The notes beneath the pieces are model-generated. The model was not told the origin of the DNA. It ran no database searches and was given only the letters and a program-made list of their open reading frames with translations. Below are positions 4,239-40,642 of a stretch of DNA of 64,000 nt, piece after piece. The stretch spans positions 1,048-65,047 of the forward strand of contig CALFCS010000190.1 in the NCBI GenBank assembly GCA_937950565.1, read 5' to 3'. A program made the translations under genes and the position numbers. How positions within the stretch are numbered: position 1 is the first letter of the stretch; each line of letters opens with the position of its first letter. Source of the stretch: an uncultured Lachnospiraceae bacterium (GTDB lineage Bacteria > Bacillota > Clostridia > Lachnospirales > Lachnospiraceae).

Positions 4239-4493
4239 CTACACCACCATAATCTTCCCGCCTGTCCGAAGCCCATTTTCATGCGCAGACTGTTCCTGCG
4301 TAAGCTCCCGGCCACTCTGGGTAAAGAGAAGAAGTCGCCCCGGCTCTCCCTGCAGCGGACATTGTTCTTTTCTGCATATCATTTCCGCTATCTCTTCCTT
4401 CACCTCGTAGAGCGGAACATTTTCATCTATCTGAAAATCATATTTCTTTCCCATAATCGGCACTTCAATTTCCACAATTATCACTCTGCACAT
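4239..4493 (-). CDS. esaB: YukD/EsaB-like ubiquitin-fold T7SS protein (start uncertain: ATG 4493, GTG 4484 or TTG 4511)
   Basis: Small protein next to EssC and the WXG100 genes. It has a beta-grasp-like pattern (IIVEIEVPIMGKKYDFQIDENVPL...GKIMVV). GGAGGGAGG lies just upstream of ATG 4493. Confidence 0.6.
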   Translation of the reverse strand: MCRVIIVEIEVPIMGKKYDFQIDENVPLYEVKEEIAEMICRKEQCPLQGEPGRLLLFTQSGRELTQEQSAHENGLRTGGKIMVV

Positions 4494-4890
4494 CCTCCCT
4501 CCATTTTTCAAAATTTTCTTTCTTAAATACCGTCAGCTTCAACGCTTCCTTTTTTCTCCAGAAGCGCTCGCTGACCACCACCTGTTCTTTCTTCCAATAG
4601 ACAAAGAAAGCCTGCCCATCTTCTCTTTCCGGCTTCCATACACCTGCCTGTTCCGGCTTAGACATAATCTCTAAGATCTGCCTGATATCATCTCTAATCT
4701 GAAATTTTTCTTCTCTGGCTTCGATAATACCTGCTTCGGACATATGATGCATCGCACGTATAATTTCATCTTCCCGAAAAATTTTCTCCGGCATATAGAT
4801 TCCTTCTATCTTTGTAACTTCCATTGCATGAAGCAGAATCCGCACCTCATCAAAAGTAAGAACAATTCCTTTTTCAAGCATCTCAGCCAT
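4465..4890 (-). CDS. Uncharacterised T7SS-locus protein, paralogue of the N-terminal domain of the 1670-2374 protein
   Basis: 141-aa ORF. It overlaps the LytTR gene stop by 8 nt. See the by-eye alignment given for 1670-2374. Confidence 0.6.
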   Translation of the reverse strand: MAEMLEKGIVLTFDEVRILLHAMEVTKIEGIYMPEKIFREDEIIRAMHHMSEAGIIEAREEKFQIRDDIRQILEIMSKPEQAGVWKPEREDGQAFFVYWKKEQVVVSERFWRKKEALKLTVFKKENFEKWREDVQSDNCGN

Positions 4891-22000: not shown

Positions 22001-24402
22001 GATGCATCTGCATCGTTCTCAAGCTTCAATATTCTATATGATTGATTGTCCGGTGTGTATCCACTCTTTTCATCTGTAATCGTGATAATTTCTTCATGAT
22101 CTCCTGTAAGGAATTTCACAAAATTGCCAAACTCAAAGCTGTCCCCTACCAATGCTTTCAATGCATCTGTCGCCAAAGTAGAGAATTCAACCTTCGGGCT
22201 CTCATTATCAACTTTGATTTTCCCTTCCGGTATTTGGTTATCCTGATCTGCCTTTGTTTTATCTGAAGTCGTTCTTGTAGAAGGAGCTTCCATATCGCCT
22301 TCATTTACCAGATAAACCCCATTTGTCACATCAGCTTCCCCAACCGTCAGAATATTATCGTATTGATTTTCTCCCAAGGCAATCTTTACGTCTGTATATT
22401 TTGTATCTGTAGTTTCGAATTTCAAAACGTCATTTTTCTTTGCCCAGAAGACTCCGTTATTCGAATACAAGTCTGTTCCATCACTCTTCTTTACAGAAAG
22501 CTTCTTCCACAGCTCCTCATCATTTATCGATTCCTGAACAACATGAATGCTTCCGTAGTACTGCTCTTCATCTGCAAAATAAAGCGCATAGTTCCCTGTA
22601 TCTGCAGATGCTTCCCACTGAGGCTTTAATGCTTTTTTGTATGTACCGACATATGCATCATCCGCAAGTTCATTCTTAACAATAGCAACCTGTGAAGAAA
22701 GCATGGTCTTCACGGTTTCTTCCTCGCCTGTAACAACTCCCTCTGCCTTAGTCTCATCAACCTGCCCGTTTGTTCCTGCCGGAGCGGCTTCATACATATC
22801 GATTACCTTATCAATTTCTGCAGATATTTTTCCATATTCAAGATTTGTTACAGAGCCTGCATCTTTCTTCTGCACCTGTATATAAAGCGGACGTTTCTCT
22901 ATCGTTATATCAAGTCCTGTCAGTTCTGCATCCTCTGCTAATGTGACAGCATCTAATGTAACATCATAATTATCATTTACTGCTTCCACAGATACGATTT
23001 TTGCCTTGTTATAAGCGCCGATGTTAGCTTCGCCTGCCTGCACCTCAGCCTGAATCTCAATCGCATCTCCAACTTTTACTGCATTGTTCTTATTGCTTGT
23101 TACTGTGCCGACCAGTTTGATATTTGTATTTCCATCATATGTCTTCTTTGCCTGCCGCCACATAATCTGGTTTGCAAGAATAGAAACCGCCTTTTTATTT
23201 ACTGTAATTTTGTATACAGCATCTGACTTTGTATATTCATCATTCGCCGTCGCTGTTACTGTAATGTACGCTGTCCCCTGTCCGTTTATAGTAACAACTC
23301 CAGTATTATCTACAGAGGCAACTACAGGTTTATCAGATGCATAACTTAACGTCCTGCCCTGTACCGTATTCGCATCTACAGGAACAGTAATCGTCGGTAT
23401 ATCCCCATAAGTTATTTCAGAAGAACCGCTCGTAAGACCGAGCTGGCATGTCTTCTTATATGTAATCTCACCGGTACTTACATCCTTATCAAAGTAATAA
23501 TCGTTACTGCCTGCAGTATACTTTGCAATAAATGTAACCTTTCCTTTTAAAGCAGCTGCATTCTCATATTTCACGGAATCGCTGTACGGCGCTTTGATTG
23601 TACCAATCGGATTTGCTTCTCCTGATTTATAAATCTGTACATCACCTGTCGCACTCTCCATTCCTGAAACAGAAATGCTGACAGACTCAACATCTGTTGT
23701 TAAATCCTCTTTTTTTGAACCCGGCACTACAGAAATTGACATCCCGGCCAGTTCTTCCTTTACGGTTACTCCAATTTTTCTTTCTTTTCCATTTCTGGAT
23801 ACCGTAACATCTGTCTTACCTCTGCCAGCCGCTGTAATTGTTCCATCCGCTACCGTAGCAATACTTGTGTCATTTGACTTCCATACATATCCCGGCTCAG
23901 ATGTGCTTTGATTGCTGATTGCATGATTATCTGCTATTTTAACCGTCGCTGTTTTCTGACTTTCATTATCGAGATTCAGTTCAACCTCGCTTGATGATGT
24001 CTGGATATCCTCCATCTCCATCTTAACAGCAACAGCCTCAGAACCGTTAAGCTCCAATGCAGTTGAGGCTGCATCCTTATACCCCTGCTTTGTTACCGTA
24101 TAGGTATATGACTTCGTATCATCAAATGTGCCGTTAAGCTCTACTACCCCTTTTGCATTGGTCTCTCCACTGCATACTTCTGTTCCTTCACCAGATATGA
24201 CCACCTTTGCACCGCTTAATTCCAGAGCTGTTTCATTTGCCTGTCCGGCATTCAATGTCTCTGTTACCTGAAAGCGGAATGTCTTTTCAATTTCTGCTGC
24301 CTTCGCCACCAGACCCACATGTGGAAGCACACTTCCGAGAACCATTGCAAATGCAAGAACTAATGCCCATATCCTTTCTTTTAGATTTCTTCCTTTGTTC
24401 AT
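16099..24402 (-). CDS. Giant (2767 aa) surface protein: signal peptide, Big_2/MBG/Ig-like repeat modules and a C-terminal TM anchor with a short basic tail
   Basis: Signal peptide (LVLAFAMVLGSVLPHVGLVAKAAE). Big_2-like WKSNDTSIATVADGTITAAGRGKTDVTV. Many modules are delimited by D-x-[TD]-x-P and carry recurring (T/R)ERNF motifs. The C-terminus is LFIGSLVGLAAIAFLIIFLIAKRRKDKEEAQN with no LPXTG. Confidence 0.85.
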   Translation of the reverse strand: MNKGRNLKERIWALVLAFAMVLGSVLPHVGLVAKAAEIEKTFRFQVTETLNAGQANETALELSGAKVVISGEGTEVCSGETNAKGVVELNGTFDDTKSYTYTVTKQGYKDAASTALELNGSEAVAVKMEMEDIQTSSSEVELNLDNESQKTATVKIADNHAISNQSTSEPGYVWKSNDTSIATVADGTITAAGRGKTDVTVSRNGKERKIGVTVKEELAGMSISVVPGSKKEDLTTDVESVSISVSGMESATGDVQIYKSGEANPIGTIKAPYSDSVKYENAAALKGKVTFIAKYTAGSNDYYFDKDVSTGEITYKKTCQLGLTSGSSEITYGDIPTITVPVDANTVQGRTLSYASDKPVVASVDNTGVVTINGQGTAYITVTATANDEYTKSDAVYKITVNKKAVSILANQIMWRQAKKTYDGNTNIKLVGTVTSNKNNAVKVGDAIEIQAEVQAGEANIGAYNKAKIVSVEAVNDNYDVTLDAVTLAEDAELTGLDITIEKRPLYIQVQKKDAGSVTNLEYGKISAEIDKVIDMYEAAPAGTNGQVDETKAEGVVTGEEETVKTMLSSQVAIVKNELADDAYVGTYKKALKPQWEASADTGNYALYFADEEQYYGSIHVVQESINDEELWKKLSVKKSDGTDLYSNNGVFWAKKNDVLKFETTDTKYTDVKIALGENQYDNILTVGEADVTNGVYLVNEGDMEAPSTRTTSDKTKADQDNQIPEGKIKVDNESPKVEFSTLATDALKALVGDSFEFGNFVKFLTGDHEEIITITDEKSGYTPDNQSYRILKLENDADASGIIKTAALAGEEWQALPETGKITVPAAESGYYVVLVKVVDNVGNEAVYASNGVVVDLDKPSVSLDITTKASGYGEYAGDVAYTIHVTDPATTVASGISEIQVTVTNAGEEVAGDAASYTNTYTLDNDALNQLKGLDQEKSSYTFEELAAKAEYTINGKILKEVCNSNNIKITITAFDQAGNEVTEPIERNLRIDTTKPEILPITYDVTNETGCYKERTMTIQYKERNFDPELAKFVIKENDDRIETTLAALMSDAGKVEGITVAKVPDSGEGKPEEAPSDESIAAYTLKFGPQDGKDITYSVVPSISDKAGNTNETPIEEQIFTIDNVLPVIEVSYDNNDVQNEKYFKAQRVMTLTCTERNFDESNLNFIVDGNEEAPVTIDALDAMDGIRVTKPTEEPVDNKYVYTITFGEAEKDFDFNIAPKVTDKAGNVNAGIAYAKGTKAEKEFTVDMLAPVLEVIYKDAADNNSNITNFITTNNNELEWYYTKNIITATAKITERNFAKEKEFSEGQMNLIYTAENAKGKKVETVSYGESANKKGEWKIGGSNEYSQLFEFGKDANYTLSLNYTDLAGNEVRYDTHYFTIDNDAPDGSIVVEKASKFEKFLEKITFGIFHKEKTKVTFESKDEVSPFIQGYVLYNPGDIHGEQEQLGVSKDNTPDDITLESSKGERITNWNSEGIYKKDDKMQSDTVKENTGRVPYLRVQDKAGNVAFYSADGIIVDNQKPDTFEISIEPEAPSVGITNGEKEIYNSDVPFKISVTDPVKEGEIYAGIKSVSYEVWADGVRTQEAVSYEDDNGNSLEAKDRVQMVKWTQDSKIKPTVKTKDDKGNKINDSNNVVIKVTAEDNAGNVETASKVLAIDTTSPKIDVSYDNNEVENNSYFKNDRVMTITYTERNFFEEGLTFDITVDNTVNKAVPMSVLKDKKQAEEKGIYGISVEEVPDVLVYTQDSDEFRNLEVDRKFTYKIRFGEEDEKIDRDYEIIPYIKDEAANDNTANDIKVNYVDGTKAGEAFTIDEIIPVIDVEYMAGNGKIEPGKNEKERIYESVSQITANVKITERNFSTNADNSFSDGSKQMTLEYTAIDNEKKPVATAKYTDLAKQKWEAVGDIKTKTFVFDKDANYTFALDYTDLAGNKAETHETRYFTKDEKAPTGMIQIRETTWETFLKEITFGFFTNKSELIVMKNSDETSGVKSMHYYKYVPNVEKKGTFAGLTKKDLENLDEKLWIEGNPGAETQETLKKEQQVVYYMRVVDRAGNVTYLNSHEGVIVDKTAPGAEDSYAPKIEITTAQPAQGIYSSNVDFTMHIKDPASGGTYSGLKEVYYEVRNNGTVTQAGNYNAEFADKTARKQTLVKSETVNAQKNNSNFVTIYVKAVDYAGNISEATKDIKIDITAPRVEIKFDNNNPLNGKYYNVTRTATIIVRERNFDRNQIRLNITNTDGTRPTVSGWDVNDSGTSDDNVNTCKVTFSADGDYTMSMSCTDRAGNVSNTAAVSEFTIDKTAPTINVTFDNNNALNGKYYNAARTATITVNEHNFRGSDVRTAITSNTVTPGVHGWSMGGNIHTATVPFTADGNYSFNVNYTDLAGNSAQVYTVNEFVIDQTKPVIEIFDIVDKSANNDVVAPGVRYSDTNHDVNGVSITYKGSKHSEKAVDGTRSNIPNGESIKMADFERTPETDDVYTMVAKVTDLAGNSDEKQVTFSVNRFGSNFELSEESKRFVKDYYNGEEEDIVVVETNVDTLTHRGISCGHDGELTDLVEGTDYTVKESGSEVSWKQYEYTINKENFEEEGTYTITIDSVDRATNEVNNKIKDEDIEFVIDKTAPSVVITGIEDQGQYRVDEREIKVSVADNVAMETVEVYVNGEMKEKPYTAEQILKYKGELPYTLKSSSDWQDVKAVAVDAAGNITDTSIGKTGKEDGVISVMVTSSWILQYYRNTPLFIGSLVGLAAIAFLIIFLIAKRRKDKEEAQN

Positions 24403-24420
24403 TCCTTCTACTCCCTTTCT

Positions 24421-24966
24421 TTATAACATTTCTTCTGTATGAACCCACAGAATTTCCTTCTCTATCTTAAAAGCCCCCGGCAATTCCGGCTTATCCGGCT
24501 GCTTTGCTTCCTTCTCCTGATTCTGGTTTTGTGATAACAATGTTGTTTCACCACCGGAGCTTAGAAGTGTTGTCTCCGATGAACCGTCCTCCATCAGACC
24601 GTCTGTTTTTTGTGAGCCATCAGTGTAAACGTTCTCCGGTTTCCTCCTCTCAGAAACCGGCTGTGCCTGGGCAGGGGAATACACTGCTTGATTTCCAGCC
24701 TTCGGAGGTTCAATACGGTGTTCCGGCTGTTCGGCAATCGCACCGCTCGTTCCCACACTCTGCCGCAGTTTCCCGGTCTGGTCATTCATCTCCTTCATCT
24801 TCTGAATCGTCCGCTTTGCCCCACGTCCCGTCTTCATATCAAAAATACCGCGAATATTAAAACGGAAGAATAAAATAACCGAAATCACAAAAAATACAAT
24901 CGCCAATACCAGGAATATAAGAAATGCAACATGGTATATCTTAATCATCATTTCCAGCTTCTGCAT
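24421..24966 (-). CDS. Small single-TM protein with a cytoplasmic low-complexity tail carrying two ETTLL motifs
   Basis: Start set at ATG 24966 (AGGAGGT RBS 7 nt upstream). TM segment VAFLIFLVLAIVFFVISVILFF. The tail contains ..SSETTLLSSGGETTLLSQ.. Confidence 0.65.
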   Translation of the reverse strand: MQKLEMMIKIYHVAFLIFLVLAIVFFVISVILFFRFNIRGIFDMKTGRGAKRTIQKMKEMNDQTGKLRQSVGTSGAIAEQPEHRIEPPKAGNQAVYSPAQAQPVSERRKPENVYTDGSQKTDGLMEDGSSETTLLSSGGETTLLSQNQNQEKEAKQPDKPELPGAFKIEKEILWVHTEEML

Positions 24967-26710
24967 CCTTCTTACCTCCTGATTTATTATCCGTATCAAA
25001 TGCTTTCTCAGAAAATTCTTTCGAAACAGCATCCTTTGCCTGCTCTATCCTTTTCAAGACTTCTTTTTTCTTTTCTCCTATCTCATCTCCATCGTCTTCA
25101 ATGTAGGTTTCTACAAATCCCTGTACACTGTCCAGCTCGTTTTTCAATTCCGCCTGTGTAATTCCTACCTTCTTAAAATCTTTTGTATACTGATAAACCT
25201 GATAAACGAAATCCTCATACATAGCAAGCGCCATTGTAGGATTGTTATTCTGGCTGACAAGATTCTTTCCGCTAACCAATTCCATCATATCATTCCAGTA
25301 ATCCCGATAGCTTACCACACTTTCCCCCGTTTTATCCTCTACGTTCAGGCTTGCATAGTATTCTGCTATTTTGCACAGAATTCTGGAGTTTTCTACTTTG
25401 TAAGCTTCCAGACTTTCACTTTCAGCGGCTATCTCAAACCACTTCTGGGACATCTGTTTATTTCCTTTTTCTTCATAAAAGAAGTAATATGCCATCGCCA
25501 TATCATATGCAAATTCATCATATCCTTCTTCATTTGTCTCCAGGTAATCTTCATTACTCTTATTTCCATTACCTGTATAACCAAGGATTTCTTTCATTTT
25601 TTCTGCTTCTTCCTGCGTAAAATTCCCCTGGCTTCCATCACTTTCTTTATTATTCTTGAATTCGTCAAGCAATTTTATATACCCTTCACTTTCTTTCGGG
25701 TTAAGCTTGATTGCATTTGCATAATTTCTTGCTTTTTCTTCTATCGTGATTGCAGTAGCTGCATTCTTCATGTAATTGTCATAGCTTTTTCCGGTCGTAC
25801 TCGTCTCGGCAAATTTAAATCCAACACTGGCAGTCAGCGATACAACCGTCAGAATGGATGTCGTCAGAAATATTTTCCACTTGCGGTTCTGTACTTTTTT
25901 GTACTCCTGGTCCAGTTCGTCATAATGCTCCAGCGCATACATCAGTTCCGCGCAAGACTGATAGCGGTCGTCCGGATTCTTCTGCGTACATTTCAGAATG
26001 ATTTCCTCAAGACCGGAAGACAGATTGGGATTCCACTGACGAATCGGATACATCTCATAAGGAGGAAGGCACGGATTGTGTCCGGTAAGCAAATGATACA
26101 GTGTTGCGCCCAGGCAATATATATCTGTCCGCCCGTCGGTCTGCCCATGGCCTCCAAACTGCTCCGGCGCCGCATACCCCTGTGTTCCGAGACACGTGGT
26201 ATCTGCAATGCTTGCGGATTTGTACTCTCTGGCAGTACCGAAGTCAATAATCATGATATTTCCGTCCGGTCTGAGCATGACATTTGACGGCTTCATATCT
26301 CTGTAAATAATCGGTGGTTTTCTGGAATGAAGATATCCCAGCACATCACAAATCTGTTTTGCCCACTCGATTACCTTTTCCTGCGGCTGCGCTCCTTCTC
26401 TTTTCAGTGCTTCACTGAGCGGCCGCCCTTCTATGTAATCCATGACAATCAGGAACGTGTCCTCGCAGTCAATCACATCAATAATACTTGGCAGATTCGG
26501 ATGATCCAGACGTTTCAAAATATCCGTCTCAGCAATCAGATTCTGCTTGACGACCTCATAGTTAGACACTCCGTCCTTCCGGACTTCTTTAATCGCCCAC
26601 GGCTTATTGGCTCTCTCATTCATTGCAAGATAGACAATACTCATACCGCCCTGGCCTATTTTATTCAAAATCTTATATTTCCCATCTACAACGGAACCTA
26701 TTTCCAGCAT
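24941..26710 (-). CDS. Hanks-type Ser/Thr protein kinase with one TM segment and an extracytoplasmic TPR-like domain (no PASTA repeats)
   Basis: Kinase motifs: GQGGMSIVYLA, WAIKEV, YRDMKPSNVML, IDFGTA and GTQGYAAPE. TM segment IFLTTSILTVVSLTASVGF. Confidence 0.9.
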   Translation of the reverse strand: MLEIGSVVDGKYKILNKIGQGGMSIVYLAMNERANKPWAIKEVRKDGVSNYEVVKQNLIAETDILKRLDHPNLPSIIDVIDCEDTFLIVMDYIEGRPLSEALKREGAQPQEKVIEWAKQICDVLGYLHSRKPPIIYRDMKPSNVMLRPDGNIMIIDFGTAREYKSASIADTTCLGTQGYAAPEQFGGHGQTDGRTDIYCLGATLYHLLTGHNPCLPPYEMYPIRQWNPNLSSGLEEIILKCTQKNPDDRYQSCAELMYALEHYDELDQEYKKVQNRKWKIFLTTSILTVVSLTASVGFKFAETSTTGKSYDNYMKNAATAITIEEKARNYANAIKLNPKESEGYIKLLDEFKNNKESDGSQGNFTQEEAEKMKEILGYTGNGNKSNEDYLETNEEGYDEFAYDMAMAYYFFYEEKGNKQMSQKWFEIAAESESLEAYKVENSRILCKIAEYYASLNVEDKTGESVVSYRDYWNDMMELVSGKNLVSQNNNPTMALAMYEDFVYQVYQYTKDFKKVGITQAELKNELDSVQGFVETYIEDDGDEIGEKKKEVLKRIEQAKDAVSKEFSEKAFDTDNKSGGKKDAEAGNDD

Positions 26711-26721
26711 CTCTTATTCCT

Positions 26722-27504
26722 CTAATCAACTTTTATAATAATGACTGATATGTTATCATTTTCCTTGCGCTGCTTATTAAGTTCTGTGCAATAAGTAGCG
26801 GCTTCTTTCATATCCTGCTCGGTCGTCAAATTCTCCCGGTTCAGTATCTTCGAAAACTCCTCCGGTGTAATAACATGCCGGAATCCGTCTGAACAAAGCA
26901 GGAATACATCTCCTTCTTTATATGTTCCTTCATAAAAATCTGGTACTACTACCGGACTTGCACCAACGCACTGGAGCAGCACATTTTTCTGCGGATGTAC
27001 TGCGGCCTCTTCCGGGGTCATCCTTCCTTCATCTACTTCTCTCTGGACAAATGTCTGATCCTTCGTGAGACTCTTCATCCCCTCATTCACAAGGTACACA
27101 CGGGAATCCCCTACGTTAATAATGTAATAATCCCCTTCTACAAAGAGCAGCGCAGCCAATGTGGTCCCGCATGGTGCGTGACAGGTCTCCCCATACCCGG
27201 CGATTTTAACATTGATTTCATCGACCAGCTGGTTCCAGCTCTTCTGCAGTGCATTGTAGTCAATCTTGCCCTCTTTTCTTTCCTTATATAATAAGAAAGG
27301 AAATTCTTCTTCGAACCAACGAGAAAATGCCCTAATCAAAGTGGCGCTGGCGACCTCGCCTTTTGCAAGGCCGCCCATTCCGTCACAGATTACGGAAAGA
27401 TGAACCCTTCCGTAATCCGTACTTGCCTCTTTGATTAAGACAGAATCCTGATTGGTATTTTTTCTGATTCCAATATCTGTATGTGCAATACTCAAAAACC
27501 CCAT
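26722..27504 (-). CDS. PP2C-family Ser/Thr phosphatase
   Basis: Motifs TDIGIRKNTNQDS, ICDGMGG, VGDSRVYL and LLCSDG, which are typical of Stp/PrpC. It lies immediately upstream of a kinase gene. Confidence 0.9.
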   Translation of the reverse strand: MGFLSIAHTDIGIRKNTNQDSVLIKEASTDYGRVHLSVICDGMGGLAKGEVASATLIRAFSRWFEEEFPFLLYKERKEGKIDYNALQKSWNQLVDEINVKIAGYGETCHAPCGTTLAALLFVEGDYYIINVGDSRVYLVNEGMKSLTKDQTFVQREVDEGRMTPEEAAVHPQKNVLLQCVGASPVVVPDFYEGTYKEGDVFLLCSDGFRHVITPEEFSKILNRENLTTEQDMKEAATYCTELNKQRKENDNISVIIIKVD

Positions 27505-27545
27505 CTTATGTCTCCTGCCCTGATATTTTTATATCTGCCTCTTCT

Positions 27546-29273
27546 TTATGACAAATGAAATTCAAATTCTTCATCTGATAATTTCAATACTGACTGGTTC
27601 GATAAGAGCATCTCTTTATGCGGGCTTGCCTGCACGCCATTTACAAAGGTACCGTTCGCAGAACCCATATCTGCTACATAATAATCCGCACCTTTCTTAA
27701 TGATTTCGCAGTGAAGACGGCTGACAGTCGTATTATCCATAACACAGTAATTTACTTTTTTCTTCTCTTTACCGATTTTGAAATTCTGAAGATTAATCAT
27801 AATCTTCTCGCCATTTTTCTTACGGATCAAGTATGCGCTTCCTGCTCCTCCGCCGAGGAGTGTTGTCTCTCCTGCTCCTGCATCCAGAAGTGTTGTCTCT
27901 CCTGCTCCTTCCGGCATAGATGTTGATGTCGCTGTCGGTGAAGGCATGGACGGGCCGCCTGCTCCTGCCGGTGAAGACATTCCTCCCGGATAACCAGATG
28001 GTCCAACCGGCGGTTTTGCTTTTGCTGATTTTTTCTTCTTGCTTGAAGATACAACGATTACAATAATGATTATGATAATAATCACAACTGCCGCGATAAT
28101 TCCGCCGATGAGAATCATATTCGGTCCGGACTTCTCCTCCAGTTTCATTGCATCTTTTAACCTGCTGGTTGCTGAATTAATTTCTGTTGCCTCTGCATCG
28201 TCACCTTTGGCATAAACAGTTTCCGCCGCGCCGATTTCATCATTTAATTTTCCAACGCTTTCTTCTGTATATTTCTTCGCATCTTTCACAAGAGCTTTTG
28301 CCTCTTCAATCGTTGCCTGCAGGTCTGCAAGAATTTTTGAGTTATCTACCTTTTCTGGTCCTGGTGGAACGGGTGGATCTGGTATTACTTCACCCCCAGG
28401 TACATATGTAATACCAAAAGTATCCAGCCCTTTTCTCACCGCATTAATCTGAATAGAATAATTTTTCTTTCCGGCAATGAAGGAATTAATTCCGATTACA
28501 TTATCGTTTTCATCCATCAAAGGACCGCCTGAATTACCATTATTTAAGGTTGCAGTATGCTCAATAATATCTACGTCTGCCGTTGTTGCCTTTGAAATAT
28601 TTCCCACAACACTGGACACGTCATCCTTTGTATTATATTCCTTGTTGCTGATTGAATCGGAAGGATACCCCATGGCATACACCTGATCCTTTACTTCAAT
28701 CTGATCGCTGTCTCCTAATGCAACCGGCTTCCTGTCATATATCTTCTCTGCCAGTTTTACAGCTGCAAAGTCGAGATCATCACTATTTACGCTGTCATGC
28801 ATTGTCGCAGCCACACGCATATCGCGATTTACATATAAGTAGATTTTGATGTGACTGTCATTTGGTGCAAGGTTCGGAACATTAAAAAGTGTTTTGAAAT
28901 CTTGAAATTCATCATTATCCATTGTGATTACATGCTTATTTGTCAATACATATTCATCATTGATCAAAAAGCATGTACCCCATTTGAAGTCATAGAAATT
29001 ACCCGCATCATCTTCATATCCTAATGAAATCTGCATTACACTTTCTCTCGGATCGTTCGTTGCCGTCAAGAGGCCTGTATTCCCTGCGTTAGTGTTATCG
29101 TCTTCTGCTATAGTCGATATTTGAATCGGCTCTGGCGACAATGAACGTGGCTCAAGAGTATATTCTGGTTCTACTCCCTCTGCCATAACCGGCAGCACCA
29201 TCATCCACATCATGCAAATTGCTGTAAGCAGCGACAGCAGTCTGCCTGCTCTTTTTCTTGTTGTACTTCTCAT
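27546..29273 (-). CDS. Secreted/membrane-anchored trypsin-like (S1) serine protease, TM segment, two ETTLL motifs and a cytoplasmic FHA domain
   Basis: Signal peptide followed by the protease core (TNKHVI..., GNSGGPLMDENDNVIGINSF). TM segment MILIGGIIAAVVIIIIIIIVIVV followed by KKKK. Then GAGETTLLDAGAGETTLL and the FHA pattern FKIGKEKKKVNYCVMDNTTVSRLHCEI...DMGSANGTFVNG. Confidence 0.8.
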   Translation of the reverse strand: MRSTTRKRAGRLLSLLTAICMMWMMVLPVMAEGVEPEYTLEPRSLSPEPIQISTIAEDDNTNAGNTGLLTATNDPRESVMQISLGYEDDAGNFYDFKWGTCFLINDEYVLTNKHVITMDNDEFQDFKTLFNVPNLAPNDSHIKIYLYVNRDMRVAATMHDSVNSDDLDFAAVKLAEKIYDRKPVALGDSDQIEVKDQVYAMGYPSDSISNKEYNTKDDVSSVVGNISKATTADVDIIEHTATLNNGNSGGPLMDENDNVIGINSFIAGKKNYSIQINAVRKGLDTFGITYVPGGEVIPDPPVPPGPEKVDNSKILADLQATIEEAKALVKDAKKYTEESVGKLNDEIGAAETVYAKGDDAEATEINSATSRLKDAMKLEEKSGPNMILIGGIIAAVVIIIIIIIVIVVSSSKKKKSAKAKPPVGPSGYPGGMSSPAGAGGPSMPSPTATSTSMPEGAGETTLLDAGAGETTLLGGGAGSAYLIRKKNGEKIMINLQNFKIGKEKKKVNYCVMDNTTVSRLHCEIIKKGADYYVADMGSANGTFVNGVQASPHKEMLLSNQSVLKLSDEEFEFHLS

Positions 29274-29411: not shown

Positions 29412-29970
29412 TCATTCTTTTACGACTTTAATAGCTCCTTTGTCATCCGGCATATCTGCTTCTACCGTCCGGTAATTTGTTCCCGGAACGGTATTCAAAA
29501 GCGTCCCCACAAAACTCCATTGATAATGATCAATCTTTCCCTTTGATTTCTGAATATCACTTGCATGAGCCAAAAGATATTGTTCGGAGAATCCCGGCCC
29601 ATCCAGATTCACGCACCGGTCTATCTTCTTTCGCATATAATCCGGCGCGGTAATCGTCGCATGCTCCGCGAGATTCCCTCCCAGCGAATGTCCTGTCATT
29701 CCAAAATGCGTATATTCATCTCCATATTTCTCATACAGTTTCCGTACATATCGTTCCGCCACAGCCTGCTGCGGCGTCAGCGTACTGTTCAAAAGTCCCA
29801 AATCAGAACCAATCCAGTCTGATATTTTTCAGCTTTTCTCCGCTTGCAGATTCCTTTTCCATTTCCAGAAGCTCTTTCACCGTATAGCTTCCGGAATCTA
29901 CTGCGGCGGAATTGAAATCCATATATGCAAGCTGCGACGCAATCACCATCTGTATATCAGAATAACTCAC
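29412..29970 (-). pseudogene. GHSLGG alpha/beta-hydrolase (Mbeg1/DUF2974-like lipase fold) split by a +1 frameshift in an A5 run
   Basis: The N-terminal 55 codons (GTG 29970 ... stop 29803) read VSYSDIQMVIASQLAYMDF...GEKLKNIRLDWF*. The C-terminal part (29412-29801) continues in another frame with ..GMTGHSLGG... Deleting one A from the run at 29825-29829 restores ..GEKLKISDWIGSDLGLLNS.. Confidence 0.55.
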
Positions 29971-30599: not shown

Positions 30600-30783
30600 C
30601 CGACCAACGCCCTGTTTTTCTGATAAACGACATATTTTGCCCTAATAAAAAGAACTTCGTCCAAAACTGAATTTATAACTCTTTTAGTCATATTTAAAAT
30701 TGCCTTTATCCCGGAAAATCCGGGCGTTTAAAAAGTGGCTGAGCGAAAGAAAAAGTGTTGAAAACCCGTCTGTTTTTGGTACA

Positions 30784-31194
30784 ATGGAAGAAACAACAGA
30801 TAAGGGTAAGATAGATGTGCATATCATAGGAAGAATTAACAGAGATATTTATAAGTGTATAACGGATGATATTGTGACGGATGAAGTTATTATTACGGAT
30901 AACTAGATACGGCATATAAAGGAGCGGCATCCAAATGACTACGAAAGGTTTTCACAATATTTTTCAAAAATTGTACAAGAACCGGATTATATTATTGAAT
31001 CAAAGAAGAAAAATACTGCGCTTATATTAAAAGAAATACAAGCAGAGGAAGAAGTATTTAAAACAGTGTTGCGGTTGGCAACATCAAAAGATAATCCAGA
31101 ATACAAAAATTCCATTATTACATTTATGAAGATTGACGAAAAGGAATGGAATAGATTACTGAGAAATAAAAAAATCCTTTACCAAAAGGAATAG
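30784..31194 (+). pseudogene. Small conserved gene interrupted by an in-frame TAG at 30904-30906. It tentatively resembles Barnase-EndoU-ColicinE5/D-RelE-like (PBECR) small proteins of Firmicutes mobile elements.
   Basis: The reading frame is continuous across the TAG: MEETTDKGKIDVHIIGRINRDIYKCITDDIVTDEVIITDN*IRHIKERHPNDYERF...PDYIIESKKKNTALILKE... The family assignment is from memory of the VIITDERIxHIxxRH motif and was not searched. Confidence 0.45.
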
Positions 31195-31206
31195 TTCAGT
31201 TATATT
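31178..31206 (+). promoter_or_regulatory. Candidate sigma-70 promoter for ncRNA candidate E1 (TTTACC-N17-TATATT)
   Basis: The hexamers and 17-nt spacer were read directly. The predicted TSS at about 31212-31214 coincides with the first base of the E1 outer helix. Confidence 0.35.
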
Positions 31207-31212
31207 GAGAGT

Positions 31213-31342
31213 AAGATAAGAGCAGAACTCTTTGAGGTGGAAGAATTCGTACGGTCCACACGCCGATGGTATTGACAGGGGAACCCCCCGAGAGATGCAG
31301 GAGAAGCGTACGCCTGCCAAAGAGTTCTAGTTCTTTTATCTT
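31213..31342 (+). ncRNA. Structured-RNA candidate E1 (unclassified)
   Basis: Long closing helix (AAGATAAGAGCAGAACTCTTTG ... CAAAGAGTTCTAGTTCTTTTATCTT). It encloses the core TTTGAGGTGG-hairpin-CCACAC-GGGGAACCCC hairpin-GAGATGCAGGAGAAGCGTACGCCTGCCAAA. E2 on the opposite strand is a paralogue. Confidence 0.5.
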
Positions 31343-31411
31343 TAGAAGATTGTTCGAAGTAGAAAATTTCCATATGATTTGTAAAACTGATTTCCGTAAA
31401 TGCTTTTATTG

Positions 31412-31447
31412 AAAAATCGATAGCCAGTGGCTATCGATTTGCTTTCT
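31412..31447. terminator. Bidirectional Rho-independent terminator shared by the E1 and E2 transcripts (and by read-through from the permease gene)
   Basis: Perfect 10-bp stem ATCGATAGCC-AGT-GGCTATCGAT, flanked by AAAAA on the 5' side and TTTGCTTTC on the 3' side. Confidence 0.7.
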
Positions 31448-31474
31448 CAAACAACTCTTTAATATATTGCTACT

Positions 31475-31572
31475 CCAGATAACTATTTGGCAGGCGTCGC
31501 CTCTCCTGCATCTCTTTTGACCCAAGGGGTGTGTGGTTGCAACGAAATTTACCACCTCAAATAATTATCTGG
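31475..31572 (-). ncRNA. Structured-RNA candidate E2 (paralogue of E1)
   Basis: The minus strand reads CCAGATAATTATTTGAGGTGGTAAATTTCGTTGCAACCACACACCCCTTGGGTCAAAAGAGATGCAGGAGAGGCGACGCCTGCCAAATAGTTATCTGG. The core matches E1, while the outer helix and first inner helix covary. Confidence 0.5.
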
Positions 31573-31579
31573 GTAAAGC

Positions 31580-31608: not shown

Positions 31609-31614
31609 TTGTTA

Positions 31615-33183
31615 TTATATGTAATCGAACTCATCCGGGCCCTTGAACCAGGAATTGCGTCCCAGGTGAAGCAAAATTGCAAGGACTGCTATAATAAGAT
31701 ATCCGATTGCGTAACCGGAAAGCGGATAGAAACCAAGCGCCGCACTGTGAATAAATCCAAATGCTGCAAGCACATAACCAACCACCGCTGTAAGAGCAAC
31801 CTTATCCAGCCTCTTATCAATGATAAATACGGTCATCGTTCCAAGCAGGATACCAATCAGAATCGCGCCCGCCTTTGTAGCTGCTACACCATTCCACATG
31901 ACACCATTGTCAATAATCATCTGCTTAACATCCGGTGCAAAATCCTGTATTCCGGATGGAAGAACCTCTGTATATATCTCAGCTAAAGCTCCTGCAGTAC
32001 CGGTAACCTGTGTATACAGGTAATCTGCAACGGATGGAACCATTGCAATACCGATTGCCGCATAATACTTTTTCTCACATGCATGGAATGCCTGTGCAAC
32101 CATAACAATTGCGCACCACAGGAATGTAATTGCACATACTGCAGGCGGAACGAGGTTATTCAGGAATGTAAACAACCCAAAAATACCGGATACACCAAGC
32201 ACAATACCGGATACGATGGAATATCCAATACCAGCATTTGATTTCTTAAGTCCTGCATGTCCAAGCCATACGGTATTCGGGATAATACCTCCGAACATAG
32301 CAGAAATCATTGTACAGATACCATCCGCAAACTGTGCCTCACGTACATTATAATTATCGCCTGCCGCATTAGAAGCCTCAACATTATCCATTGTCTCGAT
32401 GAAGTTGTAAATCTCAACAGGAATGATAATGGTAAGGTAAGGTACAACAATTGTAAAACCATTGATCATGTACTGAATACTTGTCACTGGATTCGGGAAA
32501 TAGAATCCCACACCGCTGAAATCAATCGTCGTACGTCCAAGACAAAGTGCGTAGATCACACCGCCGACAATTGCCACAACAAGCGGCGGTATTTTCTTCG
32601 GGAAGAGATATCCTCCGAAAATACCAACGCAGGCAACAAACAGGACCGGAAGTCCGACCATCGGATCTCCCAGAATGTCAAATACACCCTGTGTAGCCAT
32701 CCAGATAAAACCGATTCCGGCTACCGTACCAAGCAACGCCGCTCTTGGGATATGCTTTTTCATCCACGGACCGATAAAACCACCACAGAATTCAACAAAA
32801 CCACCAATGAAGCAGGCTGCCATCGCTGCGGACCACGCAAGCTTTGGATCTTCAAGTGAATAACTCAGCGGCATAACAACACCGTACAAGATAACAAACA
32901 TCGCCGGGGTAGAAACGCCTGACGGAAGCGCTGTAACATCTGCACGCCCCTCTTTTTTTGACAACTTATATCCCATCCATGCATAATATAGACATCCAAG
33001 CATCAGACCGATTGACATAGCAGGTACTACATAACCGAACACAACATCATCCGGCCACCCCAGTACATAAGTCAAGGTAGCAATTACAATAAGATAGTTG
33101 ACAATATTATTTGTAACTGCATAGGAAATGCCTCCAATGTCTCCACGACGGAAAAATGGGACCACTGTCTTTTGTTCTTTCAT
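31615..33183 (-). CDS. Polytopic permease, probably a nucleobase (NCS2/AzgA-like) transporter
   Basis: 522 aa and highly hydrophobic with more than 10 predicted TM segments. It is the last gene of an operon with two adenine deaminase genes. The family assignment comes from context and composition only. Confidence 0.5.
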   Translation of the reverse strand: MKEQKTVVPFFRRGDIGGISYAVTNNIVNYLIVIATLTYVLGWPDDVVFGYVVPAMSIGLMLGCLYYAWMGYKLSKKEGRADVTALPSGVSTPAMFVILYGVVMPLSYSLEDPKLAWSAAMAACFIGGFVEFCGGFIGPWMKKHIPRAALLGTVAGIGFIWMATQGVFDILGDPMVGLPVLFVACVGIFGGYLFPKKIPPLVVAIVGGVIYALCLGRTTIDFSGVGFYFPNPVTSIQYMINGFTIVVPYLTIIIPVEIYNFIETMDNVEASNAAGDNYNVREAQFADGICTMISAMFGGIIPNTVWLGHAGLKKSNAGIGYSIVSGIVLGVSGIFGLFTFLNNLVPPAVCAITFLWCAIVMVAQAFHACEKKYYAAIGIAMVPSVADYLYTQVTGTAGALAEIYTEVLPSGIQDFAPDVKQMIIDNGVMWNGVAATKAGAILIGILLGTMTVFIIDKRLDKVALTAVVGYVLAAFGFIHSAALGFYPLSGYAIGYLIIAVLAILLHLGRNSWFKGPDEFDYI

Positions 33184-33214: not shown

Positions 33215-34951
33215 TTATTGTTCTATCTCGACTGGAATAAATGAAAATTTGGTTACATCAAATAATCCCATATCTGTGAGCTTAACTTCCGGGATGACCG
33301 CAAGAGACATAAAGCAAAGCGTCATCACAGGCTCAACTGTACGGTGAATACCAAGCTGCGTATAAGCAGATTCATGAATAGCATCCAGCTTTTCAGCAAC
33401 TTGCTCGCCTGACTGATCGCTCATCAGACCGGCAATCGGCATCGGCATACTATCAATAACCTCTCCATTTTTTACCAGAACGATTCCTCCATTCTGTTTC
33501 TCCAAACATTTTACTGCAAATTCCATTTCATCATCATTGACTCCAACGACAATGATATTATGTGAATCATGTGCAATAGAAAGTGCAACTGCCCCTTCCT
33601 GAATACCATAGCCTTTCAGGAATCCACAGGCAACATTTCCTGTGCCCTGATGTCTTTCTACTACCGCAACCTTCACAATATCAACATCTTTAGACCAGAC
33701 AAATTCGCCCTGCTCATCTAATTTGACAGTTGCCTCTGCCTTCTTAGTCACAACACCGCCCGGCTGAATCTCAATCACATTTACATGTCCTGTTTTCAGG
33801 TTCATCTTGAATTTTTCTTTAGAAAAATCTTTGAGATAAACGCTCTGCATAACGCTGGAAATATCATAACGTTCAACCGGAGGTAAATACTCACCACGCT
33901 CTGCTGTCAGCTTACCTCTCATCCATACTCTGTCTACATGGAATTCACGCAGGTCATCCAGAAGAACAATATCAGCACGGTATCCCGGAGCAATTGCGCC
34001 GCGGTCATAAAGCCGGAAGCATTCTGCCGCATTAATGGTTGCCATGCGAAGAGCAGTAACCGGATCCAGTCCTTCCTCCACACAAATGCGCAGATGATTA
34101 TCCAGGTGACCTTCCTGCAAAATCGTCTTCGGCTGGCGGTCATCCGAGCAAAGCAGACATCTGCGGCTATTCTCCGGCGTTACACCCTTAAGCAGTGTGC
34201 GCAGGTCATGACACGCCGAGCCCTGACGCAGCAGTACATACATTCCACATGCAATACGTTCCTGCATATCTTCTACAGTCGCACATTCGTGATCGCCCTG
34301 GATTCTGGCTGCCGCATAACCATTGAGCGCCAGTCCTGACAGCCCCGGAGAATGTCCGTCTATCAACTTGCCTTCTTCTTTTGCTAACAATAATTTATCC
34401 AGGACACTGTCATCGGTAGAAAGCACGCCTGGGAAATTCATAAACTCGCCAAGTCCAAGAATCTTTTCCCTCTTGATTGGCTCGTCCATCTGCTCCGCCT
34501 CAATGGTTGCACCCGCATGCTCAAATGGTGTTGCCGGCACACAGGACGGTAACATATACTGAATGTCAAGTGCAGTATTTTCAGCCGCTTTCATCATATA
34601 ATCTAATCCTTTGATTCCACACACATTAACGATTTCATGCGGGTCCGCAATAATCGTTGTTCCACCGTGCGGAACTAAAAGCCGTCCTAATTCCTCCGGA
34701 CACAGATAGGAAGATTCAATATGAATATGGCTGTCAATAAATCCTGGAACTGCATAACGGCCTTCTGCATCGATTTCCGTTTCGCCATGATACTGCCCGA
34801 CACCGGCAATCTGATCTCCACAAAGCGCAATATCTCCTTCTACAAATTTTCCGGAAAATACATCCAGCACTTTACAGTTTTTAATGACTGTATCTGCCGG
34901 AATCTCGCCAGATGCAGTTTTGATTAATTTTCTAAGCATTTCTTTATTCAA
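33215..34951 (-). CDS. ade: Adenine deaminase (amidohydrolase superfamily)
   Basis: 578 aa with GFIDSHIHIESS metal-binding and DGHSPG motifs. Length and layout are typical of Ade. Confidence 0.8.
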   Translation of the reverse strand: MNKEMLRKLIKTASGEIPADTVIKNCKVLDVFSGKFVEGDIALCGDQIAGVGQYHGETEIDAEGRYAVPGFIDSHIHIESSYLCPEELGRLLVPHGGTTIIADPHEIVNVCGIKGLDYMMKAAENTALDIQYMLPSCVPATPFEHAGATIEAEQMDEPIKREKILGLGEFMNFPGVLSTDDSVLDKLLLAKEEGKLIDGHSPGLSGLALNGYAAARIQGDHECATVEDMQERIACGMYVLLRQGSACHDLRTLLKGVTPENSRRCLLCSDDRQPKTILQEGHLDNHLRICVEEGLDPVTALRMATINAAECFRLYDRGAIAPGYRADIVLLDDLREFHVDRVWMRGKLTAERGEYLPPVERYDISSVMQSVYLKDFSKEKFKMNLKTGHVNVIEIQPGGVVTKKAEATVKLDEQGEFVWSKDVDIVKVAVVERHQGTGNVACGFLKGYGIQEGAVALSIAHDSHNIIVVGVNDDEMEFAVKCLEKQNGGIVLVKNGEVIDSMPMPIAGLMSDQSGEQVAEKLDAIHESAYTQLGIHRTVEPVMTLCFMSLAVIPEVKLTDMGLFDVTKFSFIPVEIEQ

Positions 34952-35011
34952 AACAGGATTCCCCTTTCTTCTATATTTCTCTATGTTATTTTATATCTAT
35001 CTATATTTCTT

Positions 35012-36793
35012 CTATACTTCTCTCAGCTTTAAAACAGGATCAAATGTTGTTAATGCAAGATAATCAACCGGTCCTACATCCGTAACAGCATAATCCGGAA
35101 TCGCCGTAATCGGAAGGAAGAACATATACATCATCGGATTTGGCAGATCAGAACCAAGCTCACGCGTTGCAAGATCAATCCGTTTCTCCTGTTCTGCAAC
35201 CTCTTCCGGCTCGCAGTCACTTACAATACCGCCAATCGGCAATGGCAGAAATTCAATAATTTCCCCATCTGCAACAACAACCTGGCCACCGCCCTGCTCA
35301 ATCAGATAATTCGCAGCAATTGACATATCCTCAGCGCTTACACCCATAACTACAAGGTTGTTGTCATCCGGTGCGGCAGACGATGCCATTGCTCCCTTTT
35401 TCAGCTTCCATCCGGAACAAAACGCAAGCGCTTTATTTCCATTTCTTCCGAAACGCTCCAGCACGGAAACCATAGCCACATCCTGTTCCGGATCTGGTTT
35501 CACAACACCATTTTCTACTTTCAATACAACATCTCTTCTCTTGCGGACAAATGGTCCTTTTACATCGATTGCCAGGACATCAGCCTGTCCATTCTGAATT
35601 CCTACATGATATTCAAAATCCTCTTTTGTGGTCAGCGCACATTTCAAAGCGCCCTTAAGTACAGAACTTCTTTCCGGTGCGTGTAGCTCATAAGAAAGAT
35701 GTTCATTTTCCGCAACCATTTTTCCGTTTGTCATAACTTTGGCAATCTTAAATTCTTCCAGACTGTCAACAAACAGAATATCTGCAATACGTCCCGGACA
35801 GATAGAGCCAACTAAATGATCGATGCGGTATGCCTCAGCACTGTTAATCGTAGCCATCTGGATTGCGGTCATTGGATCAACGCCGGCTTTCATTGCAAGA
35901 CGTACAACATTGTCAAGATGTCCTTTCGACAAAATATCTGTTGCAGTCACATCATCCGTACAGAAGCTTACGCGGCGCGCAAATGCCGGATTCACTTCCG
36001 TTACAGCACGGATATTTTCCTCAAGGAAATGTGTAACACAAGATTCACGGATCAGCATATGCATACCTTTACGCATCTTCTCCACAACTTCCTCATGGTC
36101 ATAGCTTTCATGGTCGAGACGGACTCCCGCACACAAATATCCATTCAAATCATTGCCTCTTGCCATTGGCGCACAGCCAAATACCGGCAGACGGTTTTTA
36201 AATGCTTCAGCAATAGCGCCAAGTGTATCCTCATCTTCTTCCTGAATAAACTCACGTACCGTTTCCCAGACACCGTAACATTCCGGCCACTGCTGTACCT
36301 CTGCGTGTACTTCTTTATTAAAATTAAATGCAATCGTAGATTCTGGGATTGTATATGGAGTTTTATATGGCGCTCCCCAAAATACCTTAAGCGGACTCTT
36401 TTTGACTTCGTCCAAAACCTCCCTGAGACCTTCAAGACCCGAAACAGAAATATACTCATCAAGACCGGAAATCATGCTTGTTGTACCATGTGGTACAACC
36501 GCTTTTGCATAGCTGGTAATACTAAGCTTACTGCACTCACTGTGAATGTGTCCATCAATCATACCTGGAACCAGATAACGGCCTTCTGCATCAATAATCT
36601 CTGTGTCTGGTCCAATATATGCCTCTACGTCACCCACTGCGGCAATCATATCATTATAGATTGCCACATCCGCCGGATATATCTCGCTTGACATTACGTT
36701 AACAAGCTGTCCGCCGCGAATTACCTTGTGTGCCGGAATCGTGGCTCTGCCCGCACGGATTCTTTCTTTCAAATCAGATACACTTCTTTCCAT
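35012..36793 (-). CDS. Adenine deaminase paralogue (amidohydrolase superfamily)
   Basis: 593 aa with GMIDGHIHSECS. It is collinear with the downstream Ade but clearly diverged from it. Confidence 0.7.
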   Translation of the reverse strand: MERSVSDLKERIRAGRATIPAHKVIRGGQLVNVMSSEIYPADVAIYNDMIAAVGDVEAYIGPDTEIIDAEGRYLVPGMIDGHIHSECSKLSITSYAKAVVPHGTTSMISGLDEYISVSGLEGLREVLDEVKKSPLKVFWGAPYKTPYTIPESTIAFNFNKEVHAEVQQWPECYGVWETVREFIQEEDEDTLGAIAEAFKNRLPVFGCAPMARGNDLNGYLCAGVRLDHESYDHEEVVEKMRKGMHMLIRESCVTHFLEENIRAVTEVNPAFARRVSFCTDDVTATDILSKGHLDNVVRLAMKAGVDPMTAIQMATINSAEAYRIDHLVGSICPGRIADILFVDSLEEFKIAKVMTNGKMVAENEHLSYELHAPERSSVLKGALKCALTTKEDFEYHVGIQNGQADVLAIDVKGPFVRKRRDVVLKVENGVVKPDPEQDVAMVSVLERFGRNGNKALAFCSGWKLKKGAMASSAAPDDNNLVVMGVSAEDMSIAANYLIEQGGGQVVVADGEIIEFLPLPIGGIVSDCEPEEVAEQEKRIDLATRELGSDLPNPMMYMFFLPITAIPDYAVTDVGPVDYLALTTFDPVLKLREV

Positions 36794-40451: not shown

Positions 40452-40642
40452 GTGTACCCCTCTTGACTTTCACGCCTGGAAAACCTATAATTATTACATA
40501 TAGATAAGGTCTATATTATTAAGAGACACGTTTAACGACATTGAGCTAAAGCCATTTCGTTTTACCTGTCTCTTTTTTTATTTTATACTTTCTAAATTCA
40601 AAAAACAATCTTTTCTACTAAATATGTTCAATGCCCGGCCAC

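Follow-up and report, generated by a model that had tools for sequence, protein, structure and literature searches.

Skipping-rope RNAs in a Lachnospiraceae contig form the downstream half of a mobile module with PBECR2/PBECR3 nuclease genes and may act as RNA immunity partners

In type III toxin-antitoxin systems (ToxIN, CptIN, TenpIN) an endoribonuclease (endoRNase) toxin is neutralised by a structured RNA. The polymorphic MuF toxins of temperate phages represent a second system relevant to the present study, and according to passages of their description small immunity open reading frames (ORFs) follow the toxin gene in 89% of cases (PMC5576092). The RNA motif itself, named skipping-rope, was described by Weinberg et al. 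2017 as one of four highly conserved motifs with Rho-independent terminators after them; it occurred rarely in a potential 5' untranslated region (UTR), showed no self-cleavage in the authors' own experiments and was regarded as complex enough for a “sophisticated biochemical function” (PMC5737381). The same study reported a “compelling association” of the motif with a protein encoded nearby, which its main text leaves unnamed (PMC5737381). Rfam holds the family as RF02924 and classes it as a small RNA (sRNA) gene, and no functional study of skipping-rope was found by a full-text literature search. Here we report on two members of this family, E1 on the plus strand and E2 on the minus strand, in a stretch of 64,000 nucleotides (nt) from an uncultured Lachnospiraceae bacterium (GenBank assembly GCA_937950565.1, contig CALFCS010000190.1, positions 1,048 to 65,047), the whole of which is referred to as the window, and compare them with about 230 related loci, which carry L numbers.

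An Rfam 15 cmscan of the whole window returned exactly two matches above the gathering score, which is curated at 36.7 bits for this family, and both were to RF02924. E1 matched at 31227-31325 (+) with 51.0 bits and E2 at 31482-31565 (-) with 65.8 bits, each over model positions 1-80 of 80; our own model R1 scored the two elements at 111.8 and 81.6 bits, respectively. An earlier reading of the window, made from the sequence only, had found by eye no riboswitch or ribozyme consensus that fits the core and had proposed the comparison with Rfam, which, once run, showed that a known family does match. Since the matches to RF02924 are full-length and above the cut-off, E1 and E2 are real, paralogous and structured RNAs but catalogued ones, namely new members of the skipping-rope family. 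They have in common with it the helices P1 to P4 and the junction nucleotides GAG, ACAC and AGAGAU as well as a specific protein gene nearby; a hairpin at the 3' side of both, described below, is a candidate for the Rho-independent terminator of the family. Nothing essential sets them apart from the family, although E1 and E2 are convergent whereas the multi-copy loci elsewhere are same-strand tandem arrays.

Based on the matches to RF02924 and R1, the predicted fold and the pair counts, E1 is a long-type skipping-rope RNA at 31217-31335 (+), the outer helix of which can be extended to 31213-31342. It carries an extra hairpin, P3a (GGGG-AA-CCCC), between P3 and AGAGAU, which the Rfam model treats as an insertion and which is restricted to E1-type copies among the aligned homologues. 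E2, assigned by RF02924 and R1, is a short-type RNA without P3a at 31472-31575 (-). In the pairwise alignment A1 the segments TTTGAGGTGG, CCACAC and AGAGATGCAGGAGA.GCG.ACGCCTGCCAAA are identical in both copies, in agreement with the shared core that had been noticed from the sequence. The closing helices differ in sequence between the two copies yet are complementary within each, as had also been claimed: E1 has the arms AGAACTCTTTG / CAAAGAGTTCT plus the outer extension, and E2 has the arms CCAGATAATTATTTG / CAAATAGTTATCTGG, which form 15 base pairs (bp) between 31558-31572 and 31475-31489. Compared with dinucleotide shuffles the folding z-scores were -4.0 and -4.5 for E1 and E2.

The covariation proposed from the two copies was examined in two larger alignments. 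In alignment A2, which consists of E1, E2 and 35 distinct copies from viral contigs (37 homologues) and in which pairs were counted for the specified structure, 90.7% of the cells were paired, compared with 76.0% in shuffles, none of 500 of which reached 90.7%, and with 33-42% when the partners were slid. In alignment A5, with 81 sequences from bacterial genomes and viral contigs and an aligning covariance model that did not contain the pseudoknot, the value was 93.4% compared with 76.4% in shuffles, likewise reached by none of 500, and pairing in both alignments is far above what chance would give. Covariation was seen in P1, P2, P3a, P4 and in the pseudoknot described below. The closing helix P1 is solid over 9-11 bp and reaches 15 bp in the subgroup of E2. 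The difference between GTGGA/TCCAC and GTGGT/ACCAC in the first inner helix is a true compensatory change, the pair in question being AU in 18, UA in 9 and GC in 2 of the 37 homologues.

Furthermore, a pairing of 6 bp was detected between the loops of P2 and P4, one pair of which is AU in 12, GC in 9 and CG in 8 of the 37 homologues. In the 81 sequences the two halves of this pseudoknot are paired to 94% and 87%, with many two-sided changes. E1 forms it as CGUACG:CGUACG and E2 as CGUUGC:GCGACG with one G-U pair, and all helices are intact in both elements. The variable positions all lie within helices, and the unpaired nucleotides are the invariant ones. As judged from these pairing patterns, skipping-rope is predicted to fold as a four-way junction (P1 to P4) that is locked by a 6-bp kissing interaction between P2 and P4. 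A miniature inverted-repeat transposable element (MITE) or a DNA palindrome was rejected as an explanation, since the arms differ and covary, no target-site duplications are present and selection acts on the RNA pairing; the last point also led to the rejection of a peptide gene, which the sequence-only reading had likewise considered unlikely.

The analysis of the related loci revealed that the skipping-rope RNA belongs to a mobile module of two parts, in which it stands downstream and a gene or a C-terminal domain of the PBECR2 or PBECR3 family upstream. One to four copies of the RNA follow about 20 nt past the stop codon of the nuclease on the same strand. PBECR2 and PBECR3 are predicted metal-independent ribonucleases (RNases) of the phage “polyvalent”/MuF toxins. 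A search of viral contigs with the core pattern of the RNA yielded at least 120 stretches, 92 of which passed the helix checks, and in 72 of these 92 loci a PBECR2 homologue ends just upstream of the TTGAGGT of the RNA on the same strand. The gap between its stop codon and TTGAGGT is mostly 34-37 nt (48 or 250 nt in seven loci and 10-17 nt in two), and the partners are head proteins of the Phage_Mu_F or Phage_min_cap2 type with a C-terminal PBECR2 domain. The reverse selection led to the same arrangement: in 80 viral loci chosen solely by a PBECR2 peptide pattern and tblastn, the RNA was detected downstream on the same strand in all 80 and directly next to the stop codon in 78.

In bacterial genomes 58 true copies were identified among 119 pattern matches. 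PBECR2 is located immediately upstream in 37 of these 58 loci, mostly as a free-standing ORF of 119-150 amino acids (aa), and the modules sit among ordinary genes such as those for SecDF, a radical SAM/DUF2344 protein, a response regulator or DndB. The RNA copies of Clostridium sit behind PBECR3 (PF18812, E ~1e-32). In three further loci selected by the protein the RNA follows 23-26 nt past the stop codon in all three; one of the genes lies between DctPQM and argG and one in a polysaccharide locus, both of them chromosomal, and the third after a phage minor-capsid gene in a prophage. Thus, in this sampling no nuclease was found without the RNA, whereas the RNA was often found without an intact nuclease. 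A PBECR3-based scan of viral contigs confirmed nothing and blastn of E2 against GenBank phages gave no match. The tblastn search against GenBank phages gave one weak match for the PBECR2 of the window and none for a PBECR3, hence these searches supplied no cultured phage as a model.

In the window, E1 is found in the native position of such a module, i.e. behind a PBECR2 pseudogene and a promoter. The pseudogene (30700-31194, +; Pfam PF18810, E 2.4e-16) shares up to 81% DNA identity and 68-76% protein identity with MuF-PBECR2 genes of viral contigs and comprises the PBECR2 part only, without the N-terminal domain of the head protein. Its possible starts are TTG at 30700 and ATG at 30784; the homology to phage proteins extends back to about 30700, where stop codons close the frame. 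The alignment of PBECR2 proteins has invariant His, His, Glu, Lys, Asn and Ser columns, and in the window copy an in-frame TAG (30904-30906) stands just before the conserved H-x4-H motif at a position where the homologues have Q or E. The final stop TAG (31192-31194) is located 37 nt before the TTGAGGT of E1, and the homology of the module to the nearest phage locus, L051 (81%), stops at 31347. The sequence-only reading had mentioned decayed accessory genes beside the pair: the decay is real, as indicated by the internal TAG, but the gene is more than background to the RNAs, PBECR2 being their regular partner.

A sigma-70-like promoter was detected by a consensus scan at 31178-31206 (+), with the -35 box TTTACC (31178-31183), a spacer of 17 nt and the -10 box TATATT (31201-31206). 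Its -35 box is contained in the final PBECR2 codons (L-Y-Q), and its predicted start lies at about 31213, where the sequence-only reading had placed it. The arrangement is conserved in the family as TTTACA-N17-TATAAT, TATATT or TATACT, the terminal Leu-Tyr-Lys codons of the nuclease supplying the -35 box, and was seen in L008, L106, L001, L053, L014 and L021 as well as in toxin-less genomic copies. A promoter in front of each element had been proposed from the sequence, and only the one of E1 was recovered. Upstream of E2 on the minus strand the consensus scan found no promoter, and the homology of E2 to the phage copies, which reaches no further than about 12 nt upstream of the outer helix and covers only 31584 to 31454, is too short to include the family promoter.

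E2 is 91% identical to the second tandem copy in the viral locus L106, including the sequence of the pseudoknot. On its strand neither a PBECR gene nor the family promoter precedes it, and it directly adjoins the stop codon of the gene for a membrane protein. E2 therefore looks like a truncated, promoter-less orphan copy lying tail to tail with E1. Between the two elements a perfect terminator-like hairpin of 12 bp, AAATCGATAGCC-AGT-GGCTATCGATTT, is located at 31414-31440 (stem 31414-31425 / 31429-31440, loop AGT), which folds in isolation in both strand contexts. Its distance is 34 nt from the 3' end of the closing helix of E2 (31475) and 71 nt from that of the extended helix of E1 (31342). 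Read on the minus strand the hairpin ends in a T5 tail, and the T-tract on the plus strand (TTTGCTTTCTC) is weaker; the T-tract rule of the consensus scan did not call it. In the phage loci a hairpin and then a T-run likewise follow the RNA at a distance of a few tens of nt. The hairpin facing both elements is thus present as had been described, and it is probably E2's own terminator, which now also faces E1. Neither element is the 5' leader of a downstream gene, which agrees with the earlier description, and the same applies to a protein-selected solo locus in a chromosome, since the next downstream gene there is convergent.

The convergent pairing and the shared terminator, noted in the sequence-only reading, are not a trait of the family. 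No convergent RNA pair was found among the about 230 loci. Wherever else several copies share a locus, they form tandem arrays on one strand, with two to four copies that often belong to different subtypes (among them L095, L099, L106, L111, L170, L172, L182 and L285), and the convergent pairing together with the sharing of the terminator therefore looks like an accident of insertion or rearrangement rather than design. In a contig from another sample (L203) the sequence is 99.7% identical up to window position 31609, i.e. until 6 nt past the stop codon of the membrane-protein gene, and then becomes unrelated, without any skipping-rope. The block holding E2, E1 and the PBECR2 pseudogene, being absent from L203, is thus strain-variable accessory DNA.

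Tandem arrays with differing subtypes and pseudoknots were also observed behind a single PBECR2, as at L285:816-1297 (+) and furthermore in L270, L259, L304, L211, L287, L170, L172 and L182.

In the phages the toxin domain in front of the RNA is exchangeable. Among relatives the C-terminal domains PBECR2, ADPrib_exo_Tox, Ntox50 and DUF6883 replace each other on Phage_Mu_F or Phage_min_cap2 proteins. About 12 RNA-bearing viral loci without PBECR2 keep an upstream MuF-type or minor-capsid gene, and nine such loci that were sampled carry a C-terminal ADP-ribosyltransferase, Ntox50, DUF6883 or an unassigned domain, most of them with extra small ORFs after it. Several sampled phages with a PBECR2 fusion have the head scaffolding gene as the first sizeable plus-strand ORF past the RNA; no conserved small protein was found between the RNA and the next gene, some of the sampled loci having small ORFs, none of which recurs. 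L008 and L021 represent one phage lineage in which the C-terminal cassette was swapped, with PBECR2 (~420 nt) in one and an ADP-ribosyltransferase plus an ORF of 105 aa (~840 nt) in the other, and the 3' breakpoint lies in the last codons. Their promoter-RNA-terminator block is 92% identical compared with 78% for the flanking MuF gene. Furthermore, many orphan RNAs in bacterial genomes keep the last codons of the nuclease and the promoter, the rest of the gene being gone.

An inverted repeat, GTTGCACCGGTGCAAC, was observed between the RNA terminator and the next ORF in L008, L021, L018, L034, L053 and L013, and in the variant form GCGTTGCGGCATCGCAAC downstream of the RNA terminator in L111 and L014. 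The next ORF is the head scaffolding gene in the sampled relatives, and the repeat may be an operator or a late-promoter element.

Taking these comparisons together, we tentatively favour, at a little under an even chance, that skipping-rope is an antitoxin or immunity partner which neutralises the PBECR2/PBECR3 nuclease. The asymmetry described above, with RNAs that outlive their nuclease and nucleases that never occur without the RNA in this sampling, is as expected of a toxin and its antidote. In phages with MuF fusions the RNA stands at the place that the immunity gene has in polymorphic toxins. That small ORFs come with the swapped-in toxins would be expected if those toxins have a protein immunity and PBECR2 does not. 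The same-strand arrays of up to four RNA copies recall, by analogy, the repeats of type III antitoxins. According to this scenario the RNA would be made in cis on every read-through mRNA of the toxin, and the internal promoter would add further RNA, for instance in lysogens when the late genes are silent. The RNA would bind the nuclease via its conserved junction core, possibly as a tRNA-shaped mimic of the substrate. Orphans such as E2 and copies behind dead toxins such as E1 would then serve as orphan immunity genes against the nucleases of incoming phages.

A narrower form of this proposal is that skipping-rope is a tRNA-shaped RNA immunity factor which would directly neutralise PBECR2/PBECR3, both as MuF warheads and as chromosomal proteins, with the orphans protecting against injected toxins; we consider it possible, though on the doubtful side. 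The predicted fold resembles the tRNA cloverleaf in having a closing helix and three arms with junction linkers of 2, 1, 4 and 0 nt, a loop contact between the first and the third arm that corresponds to the positions of the D-loop and the T-loop and would build an elbow, an arm of 5 bp in the position of the T-arm, and an optional extra hairpin where class II tRNAs have their variable arm. In contrast to a tRNA the closing helix comprises 9-15 bp, and there is neither an anticodon-like loop of 7 nt nor a CCA end. The related BECR nucleases colicin D and colicin E5 cut tRNAs, and the immunity protein of colicin D has been described as a tRNA mimic, which makes a tRNA-shaped decoy attractive.

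Several points weigh against the proposed immunity function. The resemblance to tRNA is topological only: ARAGORN detected no tRNA in the window and the Rfam tRNA models gave no match at E values up to 10, on which grounds E1 and E2 were also rejected as a real tRNA or transfer-messenger RNA (tmRNA). The RNA and its promoter are fully kept behind other MuF toxins that have small ORFs of their own (L021, L075, L065), so the function of the RNA cannot depend on a PBECR2 domain in cis. The protein-selected samples represent the closest relatives of the query within a family of 3353 clusters. The passages of PMC5512222 on PBECR2 present it as an RNase by prediction. An AlphaFold model (m0db8280d3949) of P0077, a protein 86% identical to the PBECR2 of the window, reached a predicted local distance difference test (pLDDT) value of 94 and a predicted template modelling score (pTM) of 0.87, yet a Foldseek search of the PDB with this model gave no neighbour below E 0.2, so that fold and activity of the RNase are predicted only. 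The best toxin-related match, chain 7m5f_C of a contact-dependent inhibition (CDI) system, was not significant (E 0.35, TM score ~0.32), and a sequence search of the PDB gave no relative of the nuclease. As far as the model allows this to be judged, the PBECR2 fold thus has no solved representative close enough to detect despite the family being widespread. Binding, inhibition and toxicity are predictions, the gene order is opposite to that of classical type III systems, and tight linkage alone would equally be expected for a cofactor or a substrate.

It is unlikely, though deserving some weight, that the RNA is a positive partner, namely a cofactor, scaffold or processing substrate for the activity, folding, capsid packaging or delivery of the PBECR protein. 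Such a role would fit the tight and oriented linkage just as well, and the highly conserved junction nucleotides are as expected for a specific protein-binding core; the biochemical sophistication that Weinberg et al. saw in the complexity of the motif is compatible with it, too (PMC5737381). However, a cofactor should vanish with its enzyme, yet intact, promoter-bearing RNAs persist where the nuclease has been deleted, truncated, nonsense-mutated or replaced, and an own promoter and terminator rather fit a product that is needed in excess and also when the late-gene toxin is not made.

This persistence without the nuclease, together with the own promoter and terminator-like hairpin, the lack of a downstream ORF in the unit of the RNA and the classification as sRNA gene by Rfam, would also suit a stand-alone trans-acting sRNA, i.e. 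a phage “moron” expressed in lysogens which regulates transcripts of host or phage or sequesters another factor and adjoins PBECR genes due to shared mobility. We regard this as rather improbable, since all variable positions lie in helices and no variable seed for the pairing with targets is evident. Furthermore, hitch-hiking does not account for the constant distance of about 20 nt, the shared strand (in all 80 protein-selected viral loci) and the direct adjacency (in 78 of them) across PBECR2 and PBECR3 and across phages and chromosomes.

The RNA might instead be a cis element of the toxin gene, acting as a 3'-UTR stabiliser, as transcription punctuation or as a DNA recombination anchor for the cassette swaps. 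It always stands at the 3' end of the toxin gene, and both the breakpoint of the L008/L021 swap in the last codons and the higher identity of the block than of the flanking MuF gene point in this direction. A four-way junction with a covarying pseudoknot and a promoter of its own would, however, both be superfluous for such an element, and orphan copies without any upstream gene stay intact, so that we give this explanation little credence. That E1 and E2 represent a novel ligand-sensing or self-cleaving RNA, perhaps related to purines given their complex conserved core and the two adenine deaminase genes beside the pair, is highly improbable, since they belong to a known family that is rarely found in a potential 5' UTR and did not self-cleave in its discoverers' experiments (PMC5737381), their relatives occur among phage head genes or have unrelated genes on both sides, with no purine theme, and another strain has the permease gene without the RNAs; a riboswitch for the purine genes was accordingly rejected, and the link to purines suspected by the sequence-only reading did not emerge.

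The membrane protein next to E2 (31615-33183, -; 522 aa, multi-pass) flanks the module without being part of it, and the stop codon of its gene marks the right edge of the strain-variable block. At the thresholds used neither Pfam nor NCBIfam gave a match for it, which is unusual for a presumed purine permease. Two tandem adenine deaminase paralogues of 578 and 593 aa, both with the domains Adenine_deam_C and Amidohydro_1, are encoded at 33215-36793 (-). For an ATPase of 401 aa encoded at 40643-41848 (-), PADLOC gave a match to the abortive-infection protein AbiLi (E 9e-78) and Pfam one to AAA_21. The adjoining protein of 599 aa (38652-40451, -) had no Pfam, NCBIfam or PADLOC match and may be the partner of AbiLi, and the region 38652-41848 (-) looks like a defence locus a few kilobases from the RNA pair. 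When NCBIfam and PADLOC were applied to the nuclease and to the flanking proteins of no assigned family, AbiLi was the only result and concerned this unrelated gene. On the other side of the pair the genes at 16099-29273 (-) encode a repeat-rich surface protein of 2767 aa and, after it, a Ser/Thr kinase, a PP2C phosphatase and a trypsin-FHA protein; the interval from this cluster to the PBECR2 remnant holds pieces of an Mbeg1-like hydrolase (29412-29801).

In L329 a public gene call sets a “protein” of 67 aa over the skipping-rope RNA (4416-4619), which is probably a spurious ORF. For genome annotation the RNA explains such spurious calls of small ORFs over its sequence.

The obligatory, oriented partnership with a predicted nuclease toxin, the own promoter, the kissing-loop fold and the survival after the loss of the toxin make a testable two-component system out of what had been an orphan motif. 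If the immunity function proposed here is correct, RNA antitoxins would extend to a new nuclease family, the missing immunity protein in the PBECR2 branch of the phage MuF toxins would be explained, and an RNA layer would be added to the conflicts among phages and between phages and their hosts in gut Firmicutes. With a tRNA-shaped immunity factor, furthermore, a polymorphic toxin system would for the first time have an RNA as its immunity element, and the toxin-antitoxin modules resembling type III would gain a new family. The link to PBECR2/PBECR3, the promoter at the end of the gene, the pseudoknot and cloverleaf geometry and the asymmetry between toxin and RNA may go beyond the published record, although we do not claim priority.

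Compared with the polymorphic toxins of the MuF type, as far as passages of their descriptions cover them (PMC5576092, PMC5512222), the module shows the same combination of a conserved N-terminal domain with C-terminal toxins that are interchangeable in relatives; skipping-rope is located exactly in the immunity slot, and orphan copies accumulate. The difference lies in the occupant of that slot, which is an RNA and not a small protein, an arrangement that the passages of PMC5576092 and PMC5512222 do not mention.

The comparison with type III toxin-antitoxin systems likewise reveals differences. The nuclease is a PBECR2 or PBECR3 protein and not a member of the ToxN, CptN or TenpN families, and the RNA follows the nuclease and has a promoter of its own, whereas the canonical order is promoter, RNA repeats, terminator and then toxin. 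In addition, the skipping-rope unit comprises about 100 nt with a four-way junction compared with a repeat of about 36 nt. What the two have in common is a small gene for a predicted RNase that is tightly linked to a structured RNA, sometimes in tandem repeats, the occurrence of the modules in phages and scattered in chromosomes, and an RNA that outlives its toxin.

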